Source: an uncultured Verrucomicrobiota bacterium
GTDB lineage: Bacteria; Verrucomicrobiota; Verrucomicrobiia; CAZIPW01
Assembly: GCA_964541905.1 (NCBI GenBank)
Contig: CAZIRU010000001.1
Coordinates: 141,490-205,489 of the forward strand
Direction of reading: 5' to 3'
Length of the DNA stretch: 64,000 bases
The notes beneath the pieces were generated by a model that saw only the letters and a list, made by a program, of their open reading frames with translations, searched no databases and was not told the DNA's origin. Position numbers and translations under genes: made by a program. Position 1 is the first letter of the stretch, and every line of letters begins with the position of its first letter. Below, piece by piece: positions 6,900 through 51,956 of the stretch.

Positions 6900-7004
6900 G
6901 GGTCTATTATTACAATCATACGCCCCCCTCGCAAGACTCCTGCCTCAACTTCGCGCCTTAATGCTTGACTATAGGCGCATACGGGGGTATGATAAACTTT
7001 CCTA

Positions 7005-13744: not shown

Positions 13745-13802
13745 GAAAAAGCCATTTTCTCAAAAAACTCCTTTCGAGTCAATCTTGAAGCATTTCTAGT
13801 CT

Positions 13803-16553
13803 TTAAAACTCTAAACTCTGCGCATACATAGTCGCGTATAAATACACGCTCACCGCCTTGCCGCTCAACTTCTCAAAGGCCGCCTTGTATGCCAACATTT
13901 GCGGTTTGTAAATTTCAGCAATCTGCTCAAGGGGCATTTGGTCCGTTTTCCAATCCACCACACAAACGCCCTCTGGCGTTTCCAAAAGCAAATCCACGCG
14001 GCCCTCCAATACCATCCCGTCAATTTTTGCAAAGAAAGGCACTTCCGTTGAAGCGTTGCCGGAAGCGATTTTTTGCCAAAGTGAATGTTTTTTTAAAGCC
14101 TCAAGCTCCGCTTTCAGGCGCGGATATTTGAACCGCTCCACCTTTTTAACAAACTCGATTCCACGCGCCCATAAGCCATGCCACGCGTCCCCATATTCAA
14201 GACCACCCTCTTCTTTTCCCTTTCCTCGGATCGCCTCTTCATCCACAAAACTGGTTGGAGAGCGCACCGGACAATCTTGCGGTGTTTGCCATTCCACGGG
14301 GGCGCGCGCTTCTGCTTGCTCACAAACTTCTCCCCAATCAAAACCAGGGGGCCCCAACTGCTTAAAAGCTTCTTCAAAGCAACCTCCCGCTGCAATGCCA
14401 AGCCGCGCTGCTGCAGAATTGGTGGCTGTTTTGTAATACTTCGCATCATCCACCAAAATCAGCGCTTCTTTTGCGCGCGTTTGCGCCACGTACAAAAGAC
14501 GGTTCAGGTTTCCATCTTCCGTTTTTTCATCGTCTTGCCACAAAAGCTTTTTACTTGAAAGGTCCGGGTAGGGGTATTTTTCACGTCCATCATTGTTGGG
14601 CCTGTGCAAAAAAGGAAGCACAACAATGGGCCACTCCAAACCCTTGGCTTTGTGAATGCTCATCAGCTGAATGGCACCTCTCTCAACAGCAAGCTCTGCG
14701 CGCTCTGTCTCCATTTTTTCCAAAAGCTCCGCGGCCGTGTGGCATTGTGTGGCTAGACTAAAAATCCACATTTTTGTCTGACGCCATTCTTGAGCAAAGC
14801 CAGCTCCATACACTCCACCGAGAGCCAGCATCTTTTCATCCAGATTTATCGCCGCTATAATTTTTTTGAGCGCCTCAATGAGCGAATCCTTTCGCCCCCC
14901 AGCCCAACTTGCGCGCAAGGCCAACATCTCTTCCCTTAACGCCACGGGCATATCCTCCGGCAGTGGCGCACTTTCCATAAGCGACAAAACTTGTGGTGTA
15001 TTTTTAGTCACCCGCGAAAGCTCAAGGTCTGAACAAGCCGAAATTTCGCGCAGAAGCCCTACTAGCTCAAAACTATCAAAGGGCCTCCATAGAAGATATA
15101 TGAGGGATTGAAGGGTTTTATAAGCTGCCGACTTGGGTCCGGCAGGCGCGTGAATTTGCACGCGCAAACCTTCCTCTATGAGCGTTATTCGTAGCTTGTG
15201 CAGCCATCTTTTTTGTAATGCCAGGACTGCAATCTCGTGCGCGCGGCCCTCAGGAATTTTGAGCGCCATAATTTTTTTGGCCACCTCTCGTGCCACCGCC
15301 CAATCACTTTTTTCAACCTCAGGAATTTCGCTAAAACTCGGCGCCGGCAGCTTCCAGCGAAACACTCCTCCCTCCGAAGCATCTTCTCGCGCTTCCAGCT
15401 GTACATACTCCGCTTGAGCCGCTCCACCTTGCAACAACGCAGGGCCCACTTTATTCACCCAATCCACCACCTCTCGCGAACAACGGAAGGTTTGCTCCAG
15501 TGTCAACGCCTCAACCCCCTCGTCTCTTTGAAGCTCTTGGTGCATTTTCAAGTAATATGCGATTGAGGCGCGTTCAGGGAAAATCGTCTGTTGAGGATCT
15601 CCGACCATTGTAAGTTGTATTTTCCGCTCTTTCCGAGCGGCCAGCGCACGCAGTATTTCCATTTGTTTAGGGCTGGTATCCTGCGCCTCATCCAAGACAA
15701 TATTCCAAGTCCCCGCTTCGCTATATTCCCTTATTTTTTCAAACGTCACTGCAATAAGGTCCTCAAAAAAATAAATACCCTTTTCGCGCCGCCAACGCGC
15801 AAACCTCCAGGCAATATGCTGCGCATACAACATGCCTTGCTGGCCCTTCCATTTTTCATAAGGCTCAAAAAACTCCCTAAAAAACGGATAGGCCTTCGAT
15901 GTTTTTTCTGGATACTTCGGCAGCTCTGGCATCACCCACTGCGAATCCTCGACTGTTTTTTTGAGCGCTTCCGCATAAACCCGCAAGCGCTCTATAGGCT
16001 TTTTTGCAGGGCCGCTTATTTGGCACTCCTTAATTTTGTGAAAGGGGAAGGGGGGAGCTTGTGTAAATTCGTTTTCAGCAATTTTTCGCGCATCAACCAA
16101 CTCCAACAACCCTTCTCTAAACATTTCAAAATGCCGCCAAAAGCGTTTTTGAATTTCTGTTGAAAAATCATCCAGCGGATTGGGTTCTTCCGCTTCAAAA
16201 CTTGCGTAGACTTTTTTTAAATTCGTCGCTAATTGGATATTTTGCGGCAACGCCCATTTTTTAGCGTTTTTTTTGATTAACTCATGGCAAAAAGAATGAA
16301 TCGTCCCGATAAAAAGCCCCTGCGCCGGCAATGATTTTTTATCCGAACGCAAGCGCGCCTCCAACCGCTCGCGCATTTCTTGCGCGGCTTTTTTAGTGTA
16401 GGTGACGAGCGCTAAAGGTGTTTTTCCCGCCTGCAACATAGCCCTCACGCGGCCTATGATAGCTCGCGTTTTGCCGGCTCCCGCGGGCGCAATGACGCTA
16501 AAGGGTTGCTCTATCTCGCCTTCAAAACGCGCGCGCACCTCTCTATCAGACAT
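13803..16553 (-). CDS. addA: UvrD/REP-type helicase with C-terminal PD-(D/E)xK nuclease domain (AddA/RecB-like)
   Basis: Walker A APAGAGKTRAII, UvrD-like helicase motifs (TYTKKAA, VLDEAQDTSP), and a C-terminal VDLLLETPEGVCVVDWKTD nuclease motif. 916 aa. Confidence 0.75.
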   Translation of the reverse strand: MSDREVRARFEGEIEQPFSVIAPAGAGKTRAIIGRVRAMLQAGKTPLALVTYTKKAAQEMRERLEARLRSDKKSLPAQGLFIGTIHSFCHELIKKNAKKWALPQNIQLATNLKKVYASFEAEEPNPLDDFSTEIQKRFWRHFEMFREGLLELVDARKIAENEFTQAPPFPFHKIKECQISGPAKKPIERLRVYAEALKKTVEDSQWVMPELPKYPEKTSKAYPFFREFFEPYEKWKGQQGMLYAQHIAWRFARWRREKGIYFFEDLIAVTFEKIREYSEAGTWNIVLDEAQDTSPKQMEILRALAARKERKIQLTMVGDPQQTIFPERASIAYYLKMHQELQRDEGVEALTLEQTFRCSREVVDWVNKVGPALLQGGAAQAEYVQLEAREDASEGGVFRWKLPAPSFSEIPEVEKSDWAVAREVAKKIMALKIPEGRAHEIAVLALQKRWLHKLRITLIEEGLRVQIHAPAGPKSAAYKTLQSLIYLLWRPFDSFELVGLLREISACSDLELSRVTKNTPQVLSLMESAPLPEDMPVALREEMLALRASWAGGRKDSLIEALKKIIAAINLDEKMLALGGVYGAGFAQEWRQTKMWIFSLATQCHTAAELLEKMETERAELAVERGAIQLMSIHKAKGLEWPIVVLPFLHRPNNDGREKYPYPDLSSKKLLWQDDEKTEDGNLNRLLYVAQTRAKEALILVDDAKYYKTATNSAAARLGIAAGGCFEEAFKQLGPPGFDWGEVCEQAEARAPVEWQTPQDCPVRSPTSFVDEEAIRGKGKEEGGLEYGDAWHGLWARGIEFVKKVERFKYPRLKAELEALKKHSLWQKIASGNASTEVPFFAKIDGMVLEGRVDLLLETPEGVCVVDWKTDQMPLEQIAEIYKPQMLAYKAAFEKLSGKAVSVYLYATMYAQSLEF

Positions 16554-18711
16554 GGCGCCTCCTTTCCATTAAAACAGGATCCACAGCCCAAGCCGCTTGG
16601 GGTAATATTCCCGCTTTAGCGTAAGGCGAGAAAACTCCACCCTGTTGCCCCAAGACACCGCTTTGGGCTTTTTGGGCCATCTCTTTTTCGCACTCAAAAA
16701 CTTCTTCTTCGCTGACTATTCTTTGTATCGAAAAGCCGGTCTTTTTCGAAAAACGACACAAGCCCCACCTGCCACCCAACAGCCTTGCGTACAAAAGCAG
16801 CTGCAACCCATCCGCTTCTTTAAAATCGCTGATTTTTTTGGAACTTCCGGTTTTGAAATCCACTACTACGCGCTCCCCGTTCACCTCCACAAGCTGATCC
16901 GCCACGCCCACAAGATCAACACCCAACCAAACTCCTCTGAGTTTTTTCTCAATCTCCAAAACACGCACGCCCGAGAGAGCTTTCTGAAAATCCAACGCCA
17001 AGCGTTTTGCTTGTGCGCGCGCGCAAAGCCATCTCAATGCATCCGATGAATTATCTTCTTCAAAAGCGGATTTTCTTTTTGGGGTTGAGGCCCACACCGC
17101 CAGCGCCTCGTGAACCCACTCGCCTATGATCATTTTTTCACTCCAGTCTTTTGGTAAAAGCCCAATAAGTTTATACCAGCACACCTCCGGTTGTGTGAAA
17201 ATTTCCTCCCATGTTTTCGCGCTCGCGCGCAATGGAGGCTCTAGCGCATAATCATTTGGCCCAAAAGGATTTGCTGCATTATTGCGGGTGGCGTGTTTTT
17301 TTTGTAATTCCTCCGCAAAGCTTTTTTGCGCCTTGTATATTCTTTTTTGAACACTGGGAAGCTCAACTGAATTCGCAAGTTTCGCCCATGAACAATTTTC
17401 TTTTGCCAACTCCTCCATTGCAAAGAGTTCCTCGGCATTGTCCGTTCGCGCCCACATACGCGGGTCTTTTTGTTCGAGATTCCACCGCGCCAATTCAGCC
17501 GCAAGCTTTTCTATTTTAACCTCCGGCGCACTTCTTCTACTCCAAAGCACCAATGTCTCATTATCAAAAAGACCTTGCGCGCGCTCAAAAGGCACAACGC
17601 TTATTTCTTCGTACGCGGCCGTTTCCTTCTCATCCATTTGTTCCAACCCCTCCAAATACCACTCGCGCGAAACCTCCTTGGGGAGCATTTTTTTTATTAG
17701 AGATAGCCTTTTAGTAAAAGATTGTGTGCGTTCGGGGAAAAACCCCGCGCAAGCTGCCGTAAATTCCTCTATTGAACCTTTTGGAGGCAGACAAAAAGCA
17801 GGCTCTATGGCCACGAAGGCGCCATCCTTTTTCCACTGTTGTTTGCGGTTTATCCGCAACTGCTCTAGCGCTTCTTTTTCTTCAAATTTGTTTGCGATGG
17901 CACTTTTCATCCATTCTTCATAGAAAGCTTTTTCCTCTAGTGTTTTTCTACAATCCGCCAAAAATGCCCGCTCCCACCAGCCTTGTGTTTCATTTTTAAA
18001 AAGCGCTGCCACTATTCCTAGGGCTTCGTCGCCAGAATAAACCACTCTGGAGAATCTTCTTTTCACTAAACATTCTTTTGTGGCCTCCAAGAGATCTCCC
18101 GCGGTGTCGGTTTCTATTAGGATTTGTTCTATGGCGCCGTTCATCTCGCACACCTCTTGTTCGTATGCAAATTTTTTTTCCCACGTTTCTATCGCGCGCG
18201 CTTGGGCCGCTGAGGGTATCTGCCCCGTCAAAAAACCAATCCCCAGCGATGGATATATACCCATAATTCGCGGATCAAACCCCACCGCAACATCTACCCG
18301 CAGCTCCACTTGCCAGGCTGCCCGAAGCCCCAGCTGGCGCATCGCTGAAAAAACATTTTCCGAAAGCTCTCTAAGGATGTTTTCTTTAAAGAAATCTTCC
18401 GGCACACCCCCGGCAACACCAATTTCCATCAGCGCCTCAGCCCACTCATCAACCCCAACCCAATCATCCTCCCAAGCTCGGCCTATCATTTTTAACTCCC
18501 AAAGCCCCAAACTTCCCTCACGGCGCTCCAACTCACCCCGCGTAATAATATCCCACCCCCAAAACCCTCCTATTTCCTCTAAAATATATTTTTTTATTGT
18601 CTTTTTTTGCTCCGGGGTGGCCACAAGCAACACTCCGTTTTGCTTTTTTTTTAAAAGCGCTTTTAGCCAATTTTCCCAATGTTCTTTTATATTTCGCCCC
18701 AGCCAAATCAT
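16546..18711 (-). CDS. addB: AddB-like PD-(D/E)xK nuclease partner subunit
   Basis: 721 aa with a C-terminal ERVVVDFKTGSSKK nuclease motif. It overlaps the addA-like start by 8 nt, giving the addB-addA order seen in AddAB operons. Confidence 0.6.
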   Translation of the reverse strand: MIWLGRNIKEHWENWLKALLKKKQNGVLLVATPEQKKTIKKYILEEIGGFWGWDIITRGELERREGSLGLWELKMIGRAWEDDWVGVDEWAEALMEIGVAGGVPEDFFKENILRELSENVFSAMRQLGLRAAWQVELRVDVAVGFDPRIMGIYPSLGIGFLTGQIPSAAQARAIETWEKKFAYEQEVCEMNGAIEQILIETDTAGDLLEATKECLVKRRFSRVVYSGDEALGIVAALFKNETQGWWERAFLADCRKTLEEKAFYEEWMKSAIANKFEEKEALEQLRINRKQQWKKDGAFVAIEPAFCLPPKGSIEEFTAACAGFFPERTQSFTKRLSLIKKMLPKEVSREWYLEGLEQMDEKETAAYEEISVVPFERAQGLFDNETLVLWSRRSAPEVKIEKLAAELARWNLEQKDPRMWARTDNAEELFAMEELAKENCSWAKLANSVELPSVQKRIYKAQKSFAEELQKKHATRNNAANPFGPNDYALEPPLRASAKTWEEIFTQPEVCWYKLIGLLPKDWSEKMIIGEWVHEALAVWASTPKRKSAFEEDNSSDALRWLCARAQAKRLALDFQKALSGVRVLEIEKKLRGVWLGVDLVGVADQLVEVNGERVVVDFKTGSSKKISDFKEADGLQLLLYARLLGGRWGLCRFSKKTGFSIQRIVSEEEVFECEKEMAQKAQSGVLGQQGGVFSPYAKAGILPQAAWAVDPVLMERRRHV

Positions 18712-25983: not shown

Positions 25984-26427
25984 TTATTCAGGATGTTGTG
26001 CAAGATACTCCTCCAAAAGAAGCGCCGCCGCCTTGGAATCAACCGTTCCATCGCGCTGAGGGTGCCCTTTTTTGATCTTTGGCTTGGGAAGCGTAGATTC
26101 GGCCTCGAAAGAGGAAAGGGTTTCGTCAATCGTTCGGATGGGGATGTTGAGTGAGGTTAAGATGTTTTTTATAAATGTCTCAACTTCAATTGTTAATGGG
26201 CTTTTATCGCCGCTGGGTAGAAGAGGAAGGCCCACCAATATGAGGTTGATTTTACGCGAAACAAGCGTTTCTTTAAAATACGCAAGTCTTTCTTCAAAAT
26301 GTGTTTGCGTTGCTGCCGGAAGGGTAAAAACAACGCGCAACTCATCACAAAACGCCAACCCCCACCTTTTTCGGCCGTAGTCGAGTGCTAAAATTCTTTT
26401 AAAATTTTTGAACTTTTCTTCAACCAT
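25984..26427 (-). CDS. ruvX: Holliday junction resolvase-like protein RuvX/YqgF
   Basis: N-terminal ILALDYGRKRWGLAF (the YqgF catalytic-Asp motif); 147 aa. Confidence 0.8.
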   Translation of the reverse strand: MVEEKFKNFKRILALDYGRKRWGLAFCDELRVVFTLPAATQTHFEERLAYFKETLVSRKINLILVGLPLLPSGDKSPLTIEVETFIKNILTSLNIPIRTIDETLSSFEAESTLPKPKIKKGHPQRDGTVDSKAAALLLEEYLAQHPE

Positions 26428-26431
26428 TCGT

Positions 26432-26520
26432 GTCTAAGAGTATAGAAATTTTTCGCACAGGGCGAGAGAGTTTCTCATAGGTTTTTAAGGCCGCTCGAGT
26501 TTTCTCGGGCGGCTTTTTTG
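26432..26520 (+). ncRNA. candidate small RNA / terminated leader element, copy 1
   Basis: A ~90-nt segment ending in the hairpin GCCGCTCGAGTTTTCTCGGGCGGC plus TTTTTTG. It is paralogous to the element at 26698-26784, sharing GTCTAAGA..GAATTT..AGGGC..GAGTTTCTCATAGGTTTT. Confidence 0.35.
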
Positions 26521-26697
26521 TCCGCCTCCGCAGAAGACCACGCCTTTCGGCGTTGAATAAGGCAAGAGGGCTTCTGACTACGGCGAGATGTTGCGCCTTG
26601 AGTGCGTAGCACGAAGGACCGCGGGCTTGCCCGTGGGGGCTCCATTGGAAAGGTGATTTTTTTGAATATTACTCTGAACCTTTTGCAAAATTTCTCC

Positions 26698-26784
26698 GTC
26701 TAAGACTGCGTAAGAATTTCAAAAAGGGCTCAAGGAGTTCTTCATAGGTTTTGAACCGTCCGGTTTGCGCCGGACGGTTTTTTG
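26698..26784 (+). ncRNA. candidate small RNA / terminated leader element, copy 2
   Basis: Paralog of copy 1. It ends in the perfect intrinsic terminator CCGTCCGG-TTTGCG-CCGGACGG followed by TTTTTTG (26756-26784). Confidence 0.4.
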
Positions 26785-26818
26785 TTGGGGTGGTCGAAAA
26801 ATTCCATTACGATAGGGC

Positions 26819-27502
26819 ATGCGTTTTTGGGGCAAAGGCAAAGAGGTGGGGGCGTGGGTGCCCTTAGGGAAGGAAGAGGCGCATCATGCGCGCGTGGCGC
26901 GTCTGCGTCAGGGGGAGGCGGTGGAGATTTTGGACGGGGAGGGAAACTTTTGGAAGGGAACCTTTGAAAAAGAGGGAGTGAAAATAGGAAGCGTGGGGGC
27001 CGCCGAGCGTGAGGCGCGACAAATTGCGCTTATGGTAGGGCTTACGCAAGGAGGCACGTTTGAGATGATCGTGCGTCAGGCGGCGGAGCTTGGCGTGGCG
27101 CGGGTCGTGCCGCTTTTGACAAAAAACAGTGCCCCTTTTGGGGATGAAAAAAGGCTGCGCGCCAAACTTGAGCGCTGGAAAAGAATTTCAGAGGAGGCAT
27201 GCAAGCAAAGTGGGAATTATTGGTGCACAGAAGTTGGCGCGCCCCTGCGTTTTGCCGAGGCCCTGAAAGAAGAGGATGGTGCACTTAATTGCGTGGCCTC
27301 TCTGGAGAAGGGAGGCTTGGGGCGCCCGCAACTACCCAAGGACGGGCGTGTCTGCGTATGGGTGGGCCCCGAAGGAGATTTTGCGCCGGAGGAATATGCT
27401 CAGTTGCGTGCGCTCGGAGGGGCGGAGGTGAGCCTTGGGCGTAATGTGCTCAAGGTTGAAACGGCATGTGTGGCGATTTTGGCTATAGTGAGGGCTTCGT
27501 GA
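26819..27502 (+). CDS. rsmE: 16S rRNA (uracil1498-N3)-methyltransferase
   Basis: Typical RsmE size (227 aa) with the C-terminal GPEGDFAPEE motif. Confidence 0.7.
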   Translation: MRFWGKGKEVGAWVPLGKEEAHHARVARLRQGEAVEILDGEGNFWKGTFEKEGVKIGSVGAAEREARQIALMVGLTQGGTFEMIVRQAAELGVARVVPLLTKNSAPFGDEKRLRAKLERWKRISEEACKQSGNYWCTEVGAPLRFAEALKEEDGALNCVASLEKGGLGRPQLPKDGRVCVWVGPEGDFAPEEYAQLRALGGAEVSLGRNVLKVETACVAILAIVRAS

Positions 27503-29301: not shown

Positions 29302-30042
29302 TCAGGAGCGCGGCGGCGGAAGGGTTTTTTTGACGGCCAGGCCAAATGCCGCGCCAAAAAGAGTGCCGAAAAGCATGCCCGCATAAAGGTCGCTCAAACG
29401 ATGGCGGTTAAGCTGAAAGCGCGCCCACGAGACGGCCACAGCCGCTCCCAACACGGGTATGCCTACCGGAGGGGCCACAATCAGAATGGGCAGCGCGGTT
29501 GCGAAAGCAGTTGTGGCGTGGCCCGAAGGAAAGGATTGGTAGCCGTAGTCGAAAAAGACAAAACTGTTTTTACCCGTCTTGAAGCGCGGGCCGTAGAGAC
29601 CATCGGGAGCTTTTTCAGCAGGACGCGGACGGCCGCTTAAAACACGGATGCCTAGCGAGAGAACTCCCGCACACAGGGTGGCGTAAAGCATGGCGAACGC
29701 CAGAAGCTGCAAGCGGGGCTTTTTTAGAAAAAAACCAACGGCAAAAAAAACGACCATTAAGGCGGCGCAACCATTGTAAAAATCGCCGCGCAGGCTGATG
29801 AGCTTGGCGAGGTGATGCGCGGAGGTATCGTTGGGGAAGCGCCACAGTTGCAGCGTCAGATCGTCAAAGGGGATCATCAGAAAGAACGGGACGAGGACGA
29901 GAAAATACCAAGGACTTGCGCGACGGCAAAGGATTTTCCAAGCGTTTTGCCAAAGGGCTTGCGCGCGGGAAAATTGCGTTTGCAGAAAAGAGCGAAAGGC
30001 GCAAGAGGCCTTTGCTTGGCAGGCGGAAGGAATTTTAGTCAT
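29302..30042 (-). CDS. PAP2 superfamily phosphatase (undecaprenyl-diphosphatase / lipid phosphatase-like)
   Basis: PAP2 motifs KxxxxxxRP-like, SFPSGHA and SWARFQLNRHRLSD; multi-TM. Confidence 0.75.
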   Translation of the reverse strand: MTKIPSACQAKASCAFRSFLQTQFSRAQALWQNAWKILCRRASPWYFLVLVPFFLMIPFDDLTLQLWRFPNDTSAHHLAKLISLRGDFYNGCAALMVVFFAVGFFLKKPRLQLLAFAMLYATLCAGVLSLGIRVLSGRPRPAEKAPDGLYGPRFKTGKNSFVFFDYGYQSFPSGHATTAFATALPILIVAPPVGIPVLGAAVAVSWARFQLNRHRLSDLYAGMLFGTLFGAAFGLAVKKTLPPPRS

Positions 30043-30959
30043 GGGAGCAGGCCCTTTTCTATCATAAACTCGCGCAAGACCTCAACTCTCTTGCGTTCTT
30101 TGGTCTGGGCCGAGACTTCTTTACGGCTAAGTGTCTCGTCGTCGGAGGTTAAAAGCCGACGCAGCTGCACTTGCGCTTCGGTCTCGATTTGGCGGACGCG
30201 TTCGCGGGTAAGCCCCAACACTTCACCGATCTTATCGAGCGTCAGCGGCGGGATACCCCCCAACCCGTGGCGATAGCGCAGTACGGCCGCGGAGCGCTCC
30301 TCAAGGCGCGAAAGCGCGGCATTGATACGCTCGGAGGCCGTTTTTTGCAGAAGCTGGCGGAGGGGGTCTATTGTTTTTTCGTCACTTAGGGTCTCTTCAA
30401 GCGGGATGCTGCCAGCGGCAGTAACAGGCGCATCAAGGGAGATGGTGGAAGCGAGAATTTCACGCAGCGAGATGATGCGTTTTTGGCTAAGATGAGAGGC
30501 CTTGGCGAGTTCGGCGAGGGTAGGTTCTCGCTTAAGCGACGCTGTCAACTCGGAGGTCGCACGACGCAGGCGGGCGATTTTTTCCACGACATGGAGCGGC
30601 AGGCGGATGAGTTTACCTTGATCGGCCAGGGCTTTTTTTACATTTTGGCGAATCCACCACGCCGCATAAGTGGCCAGGCGTCCTCCCCGATTGGAACGAA
30701 AACGATCTATGGCCTTGATGAGGCCCAGGGTGCCCTCGCTAATGAGGTCAAGCAAGGGGACTCCCATGTGGGAATAGTCGTAGGCGATTTTTACAACCAG
30801 CCGCAAATTGGCCAAAATCATTTTGTCTCGGGCGGCCTTGTCTCCACGCCGTGCCTTTTCGGCCAGAGCGAACTCCTCTTTTTCGGACAAAAGTGCGGCG
30901 CGGCCGACCGCCTGCATATAGCGATCCAAAAGCGCCATTTCGGAGAGGTTTTCGCTCAT
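30039..30959 (-). CDS. RNA polymerase sigma factor, sigma-70 family (regions 2-4; group 2/3-like)
   Basis: Region 2 motifs LISEGTLGLIKAIDRFRSNRGGRLATYAAWWIRQNV, and a region-4 HTH LTLDKIGEVLGLTRERVRQIETEA. Confidence 0.8.
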   Translation of the reverse strand: MSENLSEMALLDRYMQAVGRAALLSEKEEFALAEKARRGDKAARDKMILANLRLVVKIAYDYSHMGVPLLDLISEGTLGLIKAIDRFRSNRGGRLATYAAWWIRQNVKKALADQGKLIRLPLHVVEKIARLRRATSELTASLKREPTLAELAKASHLSQKRIISLREILASTISLDAPVTAAGSIPLEETLSDEKTIDPLRQLLQKTASERINAALSRLEERSAAVLRYRHGLGGIPPLTLDKIGEVLGLTRERVRQIETEAQVQLRRLLTSDDETLSRKEVSAQTKERKRVEVLREFMIEKGLLP

Positions 30960-31071
30960 ACTTCAAATCTAACGCGCGGGGGGTATAAGTCGAGCCGTCG
31001 ATGGTCCCTTTTGCTACTTTGGCAAAAGAAAGTTGCCCGAAGCGTGCAGGTGTGCTAGGATAATGCTTCTG

Positions 31072-39923: not shown

Positions 39924-41759
39924 TCACTTGCTATCCGCGTAACGCTTAAGCCCAGTTATGGTGTAGCTCTGGCCGCCCACGGAAACACTCTCGCCAGTGC
40001 GTTTGCCCAAGAGGCCCTGCGCCAGAGGCGTTTTGTAGGAGAGGATGTTTTTCTCGGGGTTGCCATCCCAGGCGCCCAAAATCGTATAGGATGCCTTGCC
40101 GGAAGAAGTTTGCAGCTCAACGATCGAACCGACGCCGACCATATCGGTTGGGCAGTCGATAAAGTCTGTCCCGCGTGCGATGCGCAGCTCGGCCTCCATT
40201 TGCGATTTTTGAGCCATAAACGTGTCTTGGTCCTGGCGCGCCATTTTGTATTCGGAGTTTTCCGAAAGATCTCCGTGTTCGCGTGCAATGGCGATGTCTT
40301 CTTTGTTTTTAGGAATCTTTACCGTGACCAAGTGCTGATAGTCGGCCTTGCGTTTTTCGAGGCTCTCCCACGAAACAATAAGCCCATCTTCTTGAGCGGT
40401 GCTCTCTTCGGTCGAGATAAGCGACTGGATTTCGGGGAATTGCTTGATAAAGCGGGCCAAAAGCGAGCGCTTAGTCAATGTTTCGAAGCCTTGGCTCATC
40501 AGCAATGTATTGGCTAGATCTCGAGCCATCTCGGGGGTGGCCGTCGAAAGTAACTCTCCGACCAGCTCGCGGTCCTCGGCCAGCAGTTCTACCAAGCTGA
40601 TGCGCTTTGAGCTGGCGTTTTGGATGGCTTCGCGGTCGATAGCGTAGAAAATGGCGCTAAAGAGCCGCGGCGAAATTAGCGGACTGAGCATCGTGGAATA
40701 GCGACGGACATTGCGATTCTTTAAAATCCACGAAATGAGAGGGGCTTTTAAGAGCTGCTCGTCCAGCCACTTATTTAGCATCTCGTTGAGGGTGGAGCTT
40801 TGATTGTTATCAAGCAGAAAGCTGACGCACTCTTGCGTGAATTTGCCGGATGAGTTTTTAAGCAAATCGAAAAGAATGTTGGTCCAGTCATTGGGATGAG
40901 CCTCCATAAGCGCATTGAGCAGGCGCGCTTGATATTGAGAGGGCAGCTTCTCCGCCAGCTCCTGCAACTCGCGGCTTTCTCTGACAATAGCGGCTGCAGA
41001 GGGCTGCATAGACGAACCGTCGATTTTGGCCAGATGCGCCAGATCGTCGCGGACCCATGAGCCCTGCAGCTTCTCACTGGGGGTTAGGATGCGGGATTCA
41101 GAAAGGGCTGCATTCAGCTCAGAAATGAGGGTCGGGAGCTTGGAGATGATTTCTTGCGAAAGACTTGTCTTCTCCAGCAAGCTTGAGGCAAGCTCAATCT
41201 TCTTTTTGACATTTTTGGTTTTGTAAAAGGCCACAAGAGCTTCGTCTTCGGCTGCAACGGGCTCACTATGCAGCTGGTAGCGATCGGTTTTCTTTTCAGG
41301 AAAGGTGATGCGGCCGTCTTTTGCGGCACGCTTCTTGGCGGGAGAAAGCCACTTTTTGTAATTTTCGCCCAACAAATACTGGAGGGTCTCTTCCATCTCA
41401 ATAACACTCATCGAGCCGTCGGGGGTTTGGGAAAGAATAAGCAAAAAGACTTCGGCGGGATTAGTGTCCAGCAGCGCTTGGATCTCAGCGGGTTCGCGGC
41501 GGTGACGCGCGATGATGTGGTTTTCTGGCAAAAGCGTGAGTTTGGATACAAAAAAACCAGGGTCCATTGAGCGAGGCTCACCCTGGTTCTCGAAAGCGAC
41601 CATCAGCTTGCCGGAGCTTTCGTCAAAATCGGTGATACACCCGACTCCCCAGGCGCGATGAACGCAGTAGGAGCCTTTTTTGAGCTGTTTGAGCTTGTCT
41701 TTCTGGCCAGTCAAAGAGGGGTTTGTTTTTATAATTGAATCAATAAGGGCAGCTTCCAT
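39924..41759 (-). CDS. GreA/GreB-family transcription elongation factor with a long N-terminal extension
   Basis: The C-terminal ~150 aa carry Gre coiled-coil and FKBP-like domain signatures (REHGDLSENSEYKMARQDQ...GSIVEL...G..SY.ILG). The preceding ~450 aa are unique. This architecture is known from Chlamydia GreA. Confidence 0.6.
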   Translation of the reverse strand: MEAALIDSIIKTNPSLTGQKDKLKQLKKGSYCVHRAWGVGCITDFDESSGKLMVAFENQGEPRSMDPGFFVSKLTLLPENHIIARHRREPAEIQALLDTNPAEVFLLILSQTPDGSMSVIEMEETLQYLLGENYKKWLSPAKKRAAKDGRITFPEKKTDRYQLHSEPVAAEDEALVAFYKTKNVKKKIELASSLLEKTSLSQEIISKLPTLISELNAALSESRILTPSEKLQGSWVRDDLAHLAKIDGSSMQPSAAAIVRESRELQELAEKLPSQYQARLLNALMEAHPNDWTNILFDLLKNSSGKFTQECVSFLLDNNQSSTLNEMLNKWLDEQLLKAPLISWILKNRNVRRYSTMLSPLISPRLFSAIFYAIDREAIQNASSKRISLVELLAEDRELVGELLSTATPEMARDLANTLLMSQGFETLTKRSLLARFIKQFPEIQSLISTEESTAQEDGLIVSWESLEKRKADYQHLVTVKIPKNKEDIAIAREHGDLSENSEYKMARQDQDTFMAQKSQMEAELRIARGTDFIDCPTDMVGVGSIVELQTSSGKASYTILGAWDGNPEKNILSYKTPLAQGLLGKRTGESVSVGGQSYTITGLKRYADSK

Positions 41760-42730: not shown

Positions 42731-42779
42731 CTTACAGATGGCTATTCTTGCAGAAAAACACGCATGGGTCAATGCGCGG

Positions 42780-44321
42780 CTACCGTTGGCGCTCGATGAC
42801 CTTTCGGGCGTAATCCAAAAGGTCTGTTTCCATGGCGTCATTTTGCTCAGCGCTTATGAGAGAAAGCTGGAGCGTAGAGCGGGACGGAAGGCGTTTGTGC
42901 TGCAGAAAATCCTGCCATCTGTCGGCGTGCTCCATGCGGTCACGCGTATCGGTGGGGTCGGGTGAGAGGCGGAAAAATAACAGCGTCGCAAACTGGCCCG
43001 CTGGATTTTTGAAGCGCGAAAGGGTTCCAGGGAGCGAGGGCTCGGCGGGTTTTTGACCCTCCAAAAAGACAGACCGCGAGTCGAGCATTTCCCAGCCTAC
43101 GTTGGGCAGGCAATTTTCCGGATGGTGGCTGGCGCTCCCAAGGCGCGAAAGGCGCGGGGAGGCCCATTCGAAATAGAAAAGTTGGTACAGACCTTTGGTA
43201 TCTTTCCAGCGCCAAGACTCTCCCTTGGAAAAAAAGAGCGACGAGCGGAAGCGTGCCGCATCGGGAGTTACAACCGAGGCCGGGAGCCTCGCGTCTTGCG
43301 GTTTCGCAAGAGTATAGCCAGAACTCTCTTCGTGAGGATAGTATAGAGGCGTCAGTAGCGGTCCTGCAATAACCAACCCTAACACGCTCAGCGAAAGCCG
43401 TAGGGGCAGCGGAGGGATCGCCTGCCGTGTAAGGACCGTCGAACCCGTCTTTTTGCGCGGCAAAAAAGTGGCAACGCCATAGAGTGCCGCAAAGCTCAAA
43501 ACGAAAACACTCCAGCCGGCCGTATCGTGCAAAAGCAGAGGTAAGGCGGCTCCTGAGGTTGCGGCTGTCAGTATAAGCAAAAGCGAGCGCAGCAAATTGA
43601 AAACAAGTGAAAAGATTACCGAAAGAACAAACAAAAGCCCTCGAGCGTGTCCCCTCAGGCGAAAGTATTCGCCAAGCACTCCCGCCGCGAAAAGATTACC
43701 CACGAGCGAACGAATGCCCGAGCATGCTTCCTCCACCCCAACGACCGTGCCATTGCCCAAAAGGATGAGGTTCCCCATGGCCCTTGCCGAAAGCCCCAAA
43801 AGGTGCGTGATGTCCACGGCTGCAAAAGTAAGCCCCTCCTGGAGCGCTCCCGAAACAGCCCGCATAAAAAGTGTTGGCCAAGGTACGCACAAAAGGGGCA
43901 GAACCGCAAGCGGCCAAAACCGGCGCAGCATCGGCGGCCCGCCGTAGCGGTACGCGAGCGCGCAAGTAAGCGCTGCGCACAGCAGGGCCTGCGCCCAAAT
44001 AACCCCGCGCCAATCGGCGTTGGCCTCAAAAAGAAGGTGTAGCGGCACGCAAAAAATTGTCCCCAGAAGAATTGTCGCCTCCAACGCTTTTCTCCGCGTT
44101 CCCATTGGAGCCGCCGCAACATCGGCAGCAAAGTCCCTTGCGCGTTCATAAACCAACAGCCCAAGAATAATGGGCGCCAAAAGCGCAAATTCATACAGCG
44201 GGTTGTGGGCGTATTCCGTGAAAAGTTCCGAAAAAAAGAGTAGCCAAGGCGCACACAAAGCGGCGATACTAAGACGATGCCTCCACGAGGGCTTTGCCGG
44301 TTCTTGCAAGGAGCTTTCCAT
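42780..44321 (-). CDS. exosortase-family transpeptidase (Xrt) with C-terminal EpsI-like periplasmic domain
   Basis: N-terminal polytopic domain with the exosortase active-site Cys motif VGVEEACSGIRSL, followed by a ~200-aa soluble C-terminal domain. The start is uncertain: the ATG at 44321 (or a TTG at 44309) overlaps the divergent response-regulator start. Confidence 0.55.
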   Translation of the reverse strand: MESSLQEPAKPSWRHRLSIAALCAPWLLFFSELFTEYAHNPLYEFALLAPIILGLLVYERARDFAADVAAAPMGTRRKALEATILLGTIFCVPLHLLFEANADWRGVIWAQALLCAALTCALAYRYGGPPMLRRFWPLAVLPLLCVPWPTLFMRAVSGALQEGLTFAAVDITHLLGLSARAMGNLILLGNGTVVGVEEACSGIRSLVGNLFAAGVLGEYFRLRGHARGLLFVLSVIFSLVFNLLRSLLLILTAATSGAALPLLLHDTAGWSVFVLSFAALYGVATFLPRKKTGSTVLTRQAIPPLPLRLSLSVLGLVIAGPLLTPLYYPHEESSGYTLAKPQDARLPASVVTPDAARFRSSLFFSKGESWRWKDTKGLYQLFYFEWASPRLSRLGSASHHPENCLPNVGWEMLDSRSVFLEGQKPAEPSLPGTLSRFKNPAGQFATLLFFRLSPDPTDTRDRMEHADRWQDFLQHKRLPSRSTLQLSLISAEQNDAMETDLLDYARKVIERQR

Positions 44322-49574: not shown

Positions 49575-50444
49575 ATGAGGTCAATGTCGTTTGAAAAACA
49601 ATACGCCGCGTTTCAGTCTCCCGTTGAAGCGCTTATCAAAAAATATCCATTCGGAGTCTCGACCGTTGAGCGCGGCGCCCGCTATAGTTTGGAGCTTCCC
49701 GGCAAGCGCGTGCGCCCCGTGATGCTCATGGCGGCCGCTCGTCAGACGCGCAAAAAAGGTGCGCGTAGTCTTGGTAACCCCGTCTATGCAGCCGTGGCGC
49801 TCGAAATGGTTCACACCTTTTCGCTTATGCATGACGACTTGCCTTGCATTGACAACGCGACATTGCGGCGAGGTAAAAAATGCGTCCACAAGGTTTTCGG
49901 CGAGGCGCAAGGGCTTTTGGCGGGAGATCTGCTCCTTAACGAGGCCTTCCGCTTGGTTTCGCAAAGCTATCCCGCTGAGCTGGCCGGAAGGCTGGTAAAA
50001 ATTCTCGCAGCCGTCGCCAGGGACCTCATCGTTGGCGAGGCTTGTGATGTCGAGGCGGATTTTTTGCCTGTCAAAAAGGTGGACATTGGTTTTATTTACC
50101 AAAACAAAACGGCGCGCATGATTGGTGCGCCAATCGCCTTAGGGCTTACCTTGGCTGGCTGGCGCGAGGCGGCTATGCGCGAACAGGTCTTGGCCGCCGA
50201 AAAGATCGGCATTGCTTTTCAGTTGGTGGACGATCTTTTGGACGTGCGTTCTTCCGCGAAAAAGTTAGGCAAGGATGTCGGTCAGGACGCGCGCAAAAAG
50301 ACCTTCCTCAAACAAAAAGGAGCGGCCTGGTGCGAAGCGGAAGCGCTGCGGCTTTCAAAGGCAGCGATGAAGACCTTTTCGAGGCTGCCGCGGCCAGAAT
50401 TCTTGATGGAGCTTGCACAGCGTCTTATCTATCGCCAGTCTTAA
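49575..50444 (+). CDS. ispA: polyprenyl diphosphate synthase (farnesyl/geranylgeranyl diphosphate synthase)
   Basis: First aspartate-rich motif LMHDDLPCIDNATLRRGK and second motif FQLVDDLLD. Confidence 0.8.
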   Translation: MRSMSFEKQYAAFQSPVEALIKKYPFGVSTVERGARYSLELPGKRVRPVMLMAAARQTRKKGARSLGNPVYAAVALEMVHTFSLMHDDLPCIDNATLRRGKKCVHKVFGEAQGLLAGDLLLNEAFRLVSQSYPAELAGRLVKILAAVARDLIVGEACDVEADFLPVKKVDIGFIYQNKTARMIGAPIALGLTLAGWREAAMREQVLAAEKIGIAFQLVDDLLDVRSSAKKLGKDVGQDARKKTFLKQKGAAWCEAEALRLSKAAMKTFSRLPRPEFLMELAQRLIYRQS

Positions 50445-51180
50445 CGCCTATCTTGTGGGCGGGCGGCTCCAGCTTGGCTTTTTTGAATTCCGCCACGACC
50501 TCTTTGGGCGATCCCGACATCCGGACTCCCCCGTGTTCAATCCACAAGACGCGCGTGCAGAGATTCTCCAAAATGTCGAGGTGATGCGAGATAAGCACCA
50601 TCGTTTTGTCTCCGTGGAATTTTTGTTTAAGCGTTTTTTCCGACTTTTCTTGAAAAGCGAAATCCCCCACGCCCAAAAGCTCGTCCAGTAGAATAACATC
50701 GGGGTCGCATTCCATCGCAACCGAAAACCCCAGCCTCATGACCATTCCCGAAGAGTAAGTGTTTACCGGATATTCAAAGAAGTCTCCCAGCTCGCTGTAC
50801 TCTTTGATGGCCTCCACCCGCTCGAGCATCGTCTGCCGCGACTTTCCCAGCAGCATTCCGTTGAGCACGGCATTCTCTCTGCCCGAAAGCGAGCCTTCAA
50901 AGCCGACACCCAGCGAAAGCAGCTGGACGTGAAGCTTTTTGTGCCACAAAAGTTTACCCTCAGAGGGTGCGAAAATTCCGGCCAGCATTCTCATAAGCGT
51001 ACTTTTGCCCACTCCGTTGCGGCCCAAGAGCCCCAGCTTTTCGCCCTCAAAAATTTGGAAGTCCAAGCCCCTAAGCGCCCAAATTTCGCGCGGCTTTTGA
51101 AGAAGTTGTTTGCGCAGGCGATAACAAAGGCCAACGTTTTGGGCGCTCAAAATTGCCGAAGCGGGCGTGGCGGTGTTCAT
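50425..51180 (-). CDS. ABC transporter ATP-binding protein (polysaccharide/teichoic-acid exporter type, Wzt/KpsT/TagH-like)
   Basis: Walker A GRNGVGKST, ABC signature YSSGMVMRLGFS, Walker B VILLDE. Confidence 0.75.
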   Translation of the reverse strand: MNTATPASAILSAQNVGLCYRLRKQLLQKPREIWALRGLDFQIFEGEKLGLLGRNGVGKSTLMRMLAGIFAPSEGKLLWHKKLHVQLLSLGVGFEGSLSGRENAVLNGMLLGKSRQTMLERVEAIKEYSELGDFFEYPVNTYSSGMVMRLGFSVAMECDPDVILLDELLGVGDFAFQEKSEKTLKQKFHGDKTMVLISHHLDILENLCTRVLWIEHGGVRMSGSPKEVVAEFKKAKLEPPAHKIGVKTGDR

Positions 51181-51956
51181 AGGTTTACCTCCTTAAGCAG
51201 TTTTTTGTCGAACTTTTTGCAGATGCTCCACCCCAATACCATGAGCCCCACTCCCCAAATTGCGGCATAACCCAGCAGCCCTAGGCTGGGTGCGGCGTGC
51301 CGCAAAACCACCGCTCGATAGCTTTCCAAAAGACAGGCCATCGGATTTGCAAAGAACGCTCCCCGCAGGCCCTCCGGCAGTAAATCCGGTGCAAAGAAAA
51401 TTCCCGAAAGATAAAACAGCAAGCGCGTGCAGGCCTGCGAAATTTTCGCGGTATCTTCATTATAGGCCACAGGGATGCTCAGCGCCCACGCCAGCCCTGC
51501 AACAATCGTCAATTGTACCGCCACTATCAAAGGTATCCACAGCCATGTCCATGAAGCTCCCGCCCCCCAGAAGACATTAACCAGCAAAATCAGCGCGAGT
51601 ACGCAGATAAATTTCCAGGTGGCCGTCCCCACATGCACGAGCGGGAAAAGTTGTTTAGGTAAGGGAATTTGCAGCAGGATGTGCAATTTCGATTTTAAGC
51701 CCATCATTCCTTCGTTGAGCGCCGCCTCAAACCATTGCCAAGCGATCATGCCGATAATCAAAAACCACAGATAGTCCGGTGATTTTGTGTTCAGCAGCAC
51801 TCCGAAGACGAGGAAGAAGATACCCGTCATCAAGAGCGGATCGAGGGCAAACCACAAATAACCCAGATAATTCTGCCGCGCCTCGCTTTTGAGCTGTGCC
51901 CAAATGCGGTATAAAATAATATCTCGATAGCGTCCGAGGCGGGAGAACATGGCCAC
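51177..51956 (-). CDS. ABC-2 type exporter permease (Wzm/KpsM-like)
   Basis: 259 aa with six TM helices. It overlaps the downstream ATPase gene by 4 nt. Confidence 0.65.
   Translation of the reverse strand: MAMFSRLGRYRDIILYRIWAQLKSEARQNYLGYLWFALDPLLMTGIFFLVFGVLLNTKSPDYLWFLIIGMIAWQWFEAALNEGMMGLKSKLHILLQIPLPKQLFPLVHVGTATWKFICVLALILLVNVFWGAGASWTWLWIPLIVAVQLTIVAGLAWALSIPVAYNEDTAKISQACTRLLFYLSGIFFAPDLLPEGLRGAFFANPMACLLESYRAVVLRHAAPSLGLLGYAAIWGVGLMVLGWSICKKFDKKLLKEVNL

Follow-up and report, generated by a model that had tools for sequence, protein, structure and literature searches.

A Predicted Pair of Sibling Small RNA Genes with ECF-Type Promoters beside ruvX in Uncultured Verrucomicrobia-Like Bacteria

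Two Related Segments between ruvX and rsmE

The genes ruvX and rsmE both point away from the gap that separates them (positions 26428–26818 of the window, by which we mean the whole 64-kb stretch of DNA that was analyzed), and the question raised by this locus is what that gap encodes. An earlier note on this DNA had described two related segments of about 90 nt here, each ending in an intrinsic terminator, and had left the choice between small RNA genes and a duplicated attenuator transcribed toward rsmE. Both segments are indeed present. Pairwise alignment of 26425–26525 with 26691–26790 gave 61 identical columns out of about 100, the shared 18-mer GAGTTYYTCATAGGTTTT has exactly two occurrences in the 64 kb (0.21 expected), and the pattern GAAC-N16–20-GTCTAAG likewise occurs exactly twice, against an expectation of 0.06 and with none of 100 shuffled sequences reaching two. 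It also holds that no protein gene lies between ruvX and rsmE, as the gap contains only short open reading frames of 33–56 aa in sequence that is unconserved in relatives. Because both flanking genes diverge from the gap, neither of them runs into the terminators. We refer to the two segments as copy A (next to ruvX) and copy B (next to rsmE), and to the RNAs predicted from them as sRNA-A and sRNA-B; the coordinates of all features are listed in table 1.

Several other accounts of the repeat were rejected. Mobile or repetitive DNA does not fit two copies in 64 kb at a locus with conserved synteny. A coding role on the plus strand was dismissed as the RNA has no internal start codon. On the minus strand, the ATG within AAACCTATGA opens reading frames of 8 to more than 17 codons, which could suggest a small peptide or type I toxin; these mini-ORFs have no Shine-Dalgarno sequence, and, read by hand, neither their length nor their sequence is conserved across the copies. 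The segment between the two copies (26521–26675) was considered as a third RNA and discarded, given that it is unconserved in relatives and that its fold has no advantage over shuffled sequence (z = 0.03). The distance from A to B is about 155 nt in the window versus 31–62 nt in the three relatives with both copies, and the spacer probably lies outside the sRNA system.

Seven contigs from independent Logan and JGI assemblies (L003, L004, L005, L006, L013, L014, and L017) end in or near the ruvX–rsmE gap; L003 begins at 26562 and L004 stops at about 26590, leaving a 29-nt overlap. Possible reasons for these breaks are poor coverage at the GC-rich hairpins and strain variation within the 155-nt spacer, which is not conserved; copies A and B have too little exact sequence in common to interrupt an assembly graph at k = 31.

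Elsewhere in the window, the minus strand encodes a 611-aa protein (39924–41759) in which a long N-terminal extension precedes a GreA domain at the C terminus and which matches the NCBIfam GreA models PRK06330 and PRK14720 for a fused "transcript cleavage factor/unknown domain" protein. In the stretch 13803–18711 the minus strand also encodes a 916-aa AddA/RecB-like helicase-nuclease, and the open reading frame directly upstream of it on the same strand encodes a 721-aa protein with a PD-(D/E)XK nuclease domain that has no NCBIfam match and is probably a divergent AddB-like partner.

Table 1. Features of the Window Discussed in the Text
Feature	Positions	Strand	Evidence or remark
ruvX (YqgF)	25984–26427	−	NCBIfam TIGR00250, 73.8 bits; divergent neighbor of sRNA-A
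−35 element TTGAAC, putative sRNA-A promoter	26408–26413	+	inside ruvX codons 5–7, opposite strand
−10 element GTCTAA, putative sRNA-A promoter	26432–26437	+	G, T, T, A, A invariant; C in 13 of 14 members
Predicted sRNA-A, ~76 nt	26443–26519	+	covariance model match 26442–26519, 70.3 bits
sRNA-A P1 hairpin	26444–26452 with 26467–26475	+	folding, covariation
sRNA-A invariant linker CATAGGTTTT	26476–26485	+	
sRNA-A terminator	stem 26487–26499 with 26504–26515; T-run 26514–26519	+	
Spacer between sRNA-A and sRNA-B genes, G+C-rich	26520–26673	no strand	no similarity to any relative
−35 element CTGAAC, putative sRNA-B promoter	26674–26679	+	B-type signature CTCTGAACyTTT in window, L007, L013, L018
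−10 element GTCTAA, putative sRNA-B promoter	26698–26703	+	preceding C gives CGTCTAA
Predicted sRNA-B, ~74 nt	26710–26783	+	covariance model match 26710–26783, 67.5 bits
sRNA-B P1 hairpin	26712–26720 with 26734–26742	+	folding
sRNA-B invariant linker CATAGGTTTT	26743–26752	+	
sRNA-B terminator	26754–26763 with 26770–26779 (perfect 10-bp inverted repeat); T-run 26778–26783	+	
rsmE	26819–27502	+	NCBIfam TIGR00046
Four tRNA genes	6940–7004, 13745–13800, 31010–31071, 42731–42790		canonical sigma-70-type promoters
ABC ATPase gene (wzt)	50425–51180	−	start region 51170–51190; overlaps stop of ABC-2 permease gene 51177–51956

Distribution of the Element among Relatives

Relatives of the window were taken to be metagenomic RuvX homologs with 52–71% identity to the RuvX encoded in the window, the next homologs having at most 37% identity; the contigs of nine such homologs were collected, and JGI metagenomes were additionally scanned with a DNA pattern. 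Copy A was identified in ten distinct lineages, whose RuvX proteins are 54–71% identical to that of the window, and every relative has TCATAGGTTT, followed by a terminator, in the region upstream of ruvX, on the strand opposite to that gene. In four cases (the window, L007, L013, and L018), copy B is present in tandem with copy A. A third paralog, which we refer to as copy C, was found on the plus strand of a metagenomic contig (L028:131–228, contig Ga0181520_10000332) at a locus unrelated to ruvX, where it is convergent with a gene for a periplasmic binding protein; it has the same promoter, invariant linker, and terminator together with a short P1 hairpin. Genomes carrying the element probably hold more copies than are seen at the ruvX locus.

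The A and B types are each recognizable across the window, L007, L013, and L018 by their own signatures, TTGAACC...TAGAGA for A versus CTGAACyTTT...TAAGAA for B at the DNA level and UUUCUC for A versus UUCUUC for B in the RNA. The two siblings are best explained by an old tandem duplication. The gene beyond copy A, by contrast with its constant neighbor ruvX, differs among lineages: it is rsmE in the window, L007, L016, L018, and L022, a gene for a class-Ib aminoacyl-tRNA synthetase in L008–L011, a NuoG-like gene in L012, and a convergent gene in L015. The elements are therefore anchored to ruvX and not to rsmE, which refines the picture given by the earlier note.

A covariance model built from 14 distinct members detects copies A and B and no further copy in the window; it has no match in the loci searched from Opitutales and Omnitrophota, and none beside the ruvX gene of a relative with 36% identity. 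The metagenome pattern scan returned 15 matches, three of which are real (L022, L028, and L033); the other 12 have GTTTAA and no terminator and were discarded as chance matches, as was the single match in viral contigs. When species genomes in GTDB were scanned with RsmE, only two distant relatives were recovered (31–33% identity), both without the element. The family is restricted to a narrow clade of uncultured Verrucomicrobia-like bacteria. For one protein encoded in the window, the closest named homologs are from Puniceicoccales and Opitutaceae (56–63% identity), and judging from such similarity the host belongs to a Verrucomicrobiota lineage that is probably related to Opitutae.

Each Copy Has a Putative ECF-Type Promoter

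Upstream of the predicted RNAs, TGAAC is invariant in all 14 family members and is always located 18 nt before GTCTAA, without insertions or deletions. In the 14-sequence alignment the −10 block reads GTCTAA in 13 members and GTTTAA in L016, and mean pairwise identity is 0.91 in the −35 block, 0.31 in the 18-nt spacer, 0.87 in the −10 block, and 0.39 in the next five bases. Two conserved blocks at a fixed distance with an unconserved spacer between them are the signature of a promoter. Consequently, the GTCTAAGA block, which the earlier note had counted as part of its ~90-nt elements, is most likely a −10 promoter element and hence a DNA signal rather than part of the RNA; the segments do span about 90 nt, and the transcripts predicted from them are about 75 nt long.

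In Escherichia coli the sigma-E promoter consists of a −35 element GGAACTTTT and a −10 element (T/C)GGTCAAAA with a spacer of 15–19 nt and a discriminator of 5–6 nt (PMC1312014), and the consensus has also been summarized as "GGAACTT" and "GTC" (PMC6648896). ECF promoters in general have AAC at −35 and CGT at −10, and the −35 box of SigW is ATTGAAACCTTT (PMC8103513). The promoter in front of the sRNAs, TGAAC-N18-GTCTAA, fits the ECF/sigma-E consensus GGAACTT-N16-GTCaaA; counted as for sigma-E, its spacer has 17 nt, one more than the E. coli optimum. All 14 members have the two-block arrangement of ECF promoters, for which GAAC or AAC at −35, GTC or CGT at −10, a fixed spacing of 16–17 nt, and a difference from the housekeeping promoter would be expected, and the CGT in the −10 box of sRNA-B matches the ECF hallmark. 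The promoters of the four tRNA genes in the window, on the other hand, are canonical sigma-70-type sequences (TTGACT-N17-TATGAT, TTGACT-N17-GAAAAT, TTGCCC-N17/18-TAGGAT, and TTGACC-N17-AAGAAT), which shows that the promoter of the sRNAs is not of the organism's housekeeping type and which makes these four promoters a useful housekeeping reference for the lineage. From these similarities, dependence of the sRNA promoter on an ECF sigma factor appears reasonably probable.

TGAAC-N18-GTCTAA occurs nowhere else in the ~140 kb scanned (the window and related loci), and neither the 64-kb window nor the related loci (about 75 kb) yielded a gene for an ECF sigma factor. A 306-aa sigma factor encoded on the minus strand (30039–30959) was considered as the cognate sigma factor and rejected, as it is an RpoS/RpoD-like group-2 protein and not an ECF sigma factor. 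Its gene is 3 kb away from the sRNA pair and is part of an rsmE-lgt-CNNM-PAP2-sigma arrangement that recurs in L003, a contig of the same organism.

The start codon of ruvX (26425–26427) is located between the −35 and −10 elements of sRNA-A, 12 nt inside the promoter. Comparison of the window with eight relatives (L006, L008, L012, L013, L015, L016, L018, and L022) revealed that the ruvX start overlaps the −35 hexamer in L012 or lies about 3–52 nt upstream of the hexamer. Given this position in or near the sRNA-A promoter, the promoter of ruvX-truA-waaA, on the opposite strand, must share sequence with the sRNA-A gene or with the sRNA-A promoter.

A Conserved RNA Fold Is Supported by Covariation

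If the sigma-E discriminator length of 5–6 nt applies, the 5' ends would be near 26443 for sRNA-A and near 26710 for sRNA-B. Each segment folds into a hairpin followed by a terminator, with an energy of −34.8 kcal/mol for segment A (z = −5.5) and −31.3 kcal/mol for segment B (z = −3.8). The second terminator, which had been described as a perfect 8-bp stem, is in fact a perfect stem of 10 bp. The AGGGC that had been put forward as part of a shared skeleton occurs in both segments, but the hairpin loop that contains it is unconserved among relatives (identity of the loop 0.15).

All members share one fold, which comprises a 5' hairpin (P1), a single-stranded CAUAGGUUU(U), and a GC-rich terminator that ends in six or seven U. 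P1 is formed by AGARAYUUU and the nine bases directly before CAUAGG, the CAUAGGUUU(U) linker is invariant in all three paralog types, and the terminators are very stable with stems of 10–13 bp and at least six U. In a MAFFT alignment of the family, 92.8% of cells are paired in P1 and the terminator, versus 45–57% when the partners are slid by one to three columns. Both sides have changed in 11 of the 19 base pairs (four of nine in P1 and seven of ten in the terminator), and two reciprocal exchanges of pairs, one from G-C to A-U and one from A-U to G-C, distinguish type A from type B at the base of P1. Neither the observed paired fraction nor the covariation score was reached by any of 500 shuffles. 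The compensatory changes for which the earlier note had suggested looking in an alignment of related genomes are thus found in both the 5' hairpin and the terminator. Moreover, the frequent G-U pairs would be A-C mismatches on the other strand, which fixes the RNA to the plus strand.

RNAalifold prefers a fold in which the 5' arm is paired with the invariant AUAGGUUUU, and 96.9% of cells are compatible with this alternative pairing, so that the linker may not always be free. As the AUAGGUUUU side never varies, the alternative is neither supported nor excluded by the alignment. In type C, a duplicated UAGGUUUU replaces the 3' arm of P1 and leaves its second copy free, which favors P1 with a free linker.

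Apart from the four tRNAs, no Rfam 15 family matches the window at its gathering threshold. At an E value less than 10, the best matches to 26350–26900 are rnk_leader (27.9 bits versus a threshold of 50) and PyrR (27.1 bits versus 54), so that the Rfam scan proposed earlier returned nothing convincing; these matches and one to L10_leader are below threshold and driven by the terminator, and were rejected. Based on conservation and covariation, copies A and B are likely to be independently transcribed sRNA genes, and that they are such genes and also depend on an ECF-type promoter is, taken jointly, a conclusion we hold with moderate confidence. As predicted here, the RNAs constitute a new, previously undescribed sRNA family of a familiar kind of regulator.

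Proposed Function and Search for Targets

We propose that each gene would be transcribed on the plus strand from its own sigma-E-like ECF promoter to its own intrinsic terminator, giving an RNA of about 75 nt. An ECF sigma factor released under stress, most plausibly envelope stress, would turn on both A and B, and the two RNAs would then use the invariant linker to regulate mRNAs in trans, with a pairing region that may extend into the 3' arm of P1 (UUUCUC in A and UUCUUC in B). The linker is the reverse complement of AAACCUAUGA, which contains a start codon, and could therefore cover the start codon of a target; occlusion of translation initiation would be the natural guess for its effect. 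Taken as a whole, the best reading of copies A and B appears to be that of sibling trans-acting sRNAs of a stress regulon under an alternative sigma factor. That they act by base pairing through the invariant linker is a more tentative proposition, to which we give somewhat less than even weight.

Among the 55 start regions in the window, none stood out in a scan with RNAduplex. The best sequence match in the window is the start region of wzt (AAGGAGGUAAACCUAUGAAC), which is perfectly complementary to the conserved core of sRNA-B over 11 nt. The wzt gene and the adjacent permease gene look like a Wzm/Wzt-type exporter, with homologs annotated as LPS transport ATP-binding protein; since the homologs of this ABC-2-type pair carry the annotation of an LPS-export system, wzt would make an attractive target. 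However, wzt was rejected as a conserved target, since a 71% identical ortholog in L035, from a sample that also holds a lineage with copy A, reads aaggaggtgtcggcATGAAA at this position. The likeness of YUCAUAG to the anticodon loop of tRNA-Met was set aside as a coincidence, because no supported fold places the motif in a hairpin loop.

Alternative Readings of the Locus

The duplicated attenuator of the earlier note corresponds to a reading in which the elements are cis-acting leaders whose terminators set the read-through into a co-oriented gene, rsmE in the window, without any function in trans, so that the downstream gene would come under the control of a stress sigma factor. The terminator of sRNA-B does end about 35 nt before the rsmE ATG, no clear promoter for rsmE was detected, and a close co-oriented gene follows in six relatives (rsmE in L007, L016, L018, and L022, the aminoacyl-tRNA synthetase gene in L008, and the NuoG-like gene in L012). 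Yet the downstream gene is inconstant, being convergent in L015 and L028, so that copy A is not an rsmE leader. No conserved antiterminator pairing overlaps the terminator stem, the sole alternative helix detected (that with AUAGGUUUU) leaving the stem untouched; the stability and long U-runs of the terminators are also at odds with regulated read-through, and the variability of the hairpin loop speaks against a ligand-binding core. We therefore regard leaders or attenuators as improbable, and of the two possibilities offered earlier it is the small RNA genes that conservation and covariation support. Even less can be said for elements that act only as DNA, as protein-binding sites or bidirectional terminators with no functional RNA. 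The conserved blocks are short, and expression of the RNA is predicted only, but the compensatory changes that maintain two helices, including G-U pairs that only the plus strand can form, the presence of T-runs after the hairpins on the plus strand only, and the divergence of both flanking genes away from the terminators make this reading very hard to sustain.

A different possibility is that the invariant CAUAGGUUU(U) binds or sequesters a protein, perhaps an RNA chaperone or a translational regulator, and is not a pairing seed. This would agree with a 10-nt block that is invariant in three paralog types while its surroundings drift and with the lack of a conserved mRNA target in the search of the window, although the window offers too little sequence for such a search to be fair. 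Each RNA has a single motif, whereas the known sequestering RNAs CsrB and RsmZ have several, and no candidate protein was identified; we consider protein binding in place of pairing unlikely. The position of copy A raises the further possibility that sRNA-A regulates the divergent ruvX-truA-waaA operon in cis, a role that could coexist with one in trans. When the ECF promoter fires, it would occlude transcription of ruvX or cause a collision with it, or the sRNA would pair with the antisense 5' UTR of ruvX. Copy A adjoins ruvX in every lineage of known context whatever lies on the opposite side, the ruvX ATG is found as far as 12 nt into the promoter, past the −35 hexamer, and in the other direction as far as about 52 nt upstream of that hexamer, and L008 leaves no room for a ruvX promoter outside the sRNA gene. 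Nevertheless, no canonical promoter is recognizable on the ruvX strand within the element, and inspection of the relatives likewise reveals no conserved one; copies B and C carry the same invariant core without ruvX as a neighbor, so that the conserved core is not explained by ruvX; and the tight linkage may merely reflect a lack of room for rearrangement. Regulation of ruvX in cis thus seems rather unlikely, if slightly less so than the leader or protein-binding readings. A bolder version, in which sRNA-A and ruvX form an obligate interlocked divergent unit that works as a dual cis/trans stress switch, is an outside chance that we rate on a par with leaders. With an ECF-type promoter placed on the ruvX start in every lineage, firing under stress would shut down ruvX-truA-waaA (16S processing, tRNA modification, and LPS core) in cis through promoter occlusion or antisense pairing, and in trans the invariant core YUCAUAGG, which is complementary to start-codon regions with CCUAUGA, would at the same time damp translation initiation of a set of mRNAs. 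If true, this would link envelope stress to ribosome and LPS biogenesis.

Comparison with Known Small RNAs

We continue to favor the reading of A and B as sibling trans-acting sRNAs. In a limited literature search, no sRNA regulator described from Verrucomicrobiota or from elsewhere in the PVC group came up, and searches for the conserved core sequence returned nothing relevant. The proposed sRNA pair changes no general concept. It does offer a compact sRNA family backed by covariation, and its readable non-housekeeping promoter could help to delimit the regulon of an ECF sigma factor in Opitutae-like bacteria, as yet uncultured, of peat and humic lakes, while the 10-nt invariant core would provide a handle for target prediction with complete genomes.

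Sigma-E-dependent sRNAs are known in distant phyla, among them MicA, RybB, and MicL in enterobacteria and FoxJ in Fusobacterium, where FoxI is a further analogue. The RNAs predicted here resemble them in being encoded by short stand-alone intergenic genes of about 75 nt, in having a non-housekeeping promoter of the two-block ECF/sigma-E type, and in ending with an intrinsic terminator after a U-rich single strand (in MicA, AAAUUUU directly precedes the GGCC... of the terminator), as well as in their presumed role in a stress regulon. They differ from MicA, RybB, and MicL in that there is no homology in sequence or structure, with no Rfam match to these families even at an E value less than 10. 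Furthermore, the most conserved single strand lies between the hairpins here and at the 5' end in MicA and RybB, and the host is Verrucomicrobia-like, with any dependence on the sigma factor or on Hfq, and any targets, being putative. The family may represent a further case of sigma-E-type sRNAs that arose independently of MicA and RybB.

GsrN of Caulobacter, which depends on the ECF sigma factor sigma T/EcfG and acts in the stress response, is likewise a stress sRNA with an ECF-type promoter outside the enterobacteria. Its ECF group is a different one, for which the motif is of the type GGAAC-N16–17-CGTT; GsrN also differs in structure and processing and has no homology to the RNAs described here. 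With regard to the tandem arrangement, the closest parallels are the sibling pairs OmrA/OmrB, PrrF1/PrrF2, and AbcR1/AbcR2, which are under OmpR, Fur, or LysR-type control. Their sequences are unrelated to those of A and B and the promoter of A and B is ECF-like; what they have in common with the predicted pair is that they are head-to-tail paralogs, each with its own promoter of the same type and its own terminator, that an identical core is retained while the remaining sequence has diverged, and that the two siblings occur as a pair in some lineages and as a single gene in others.
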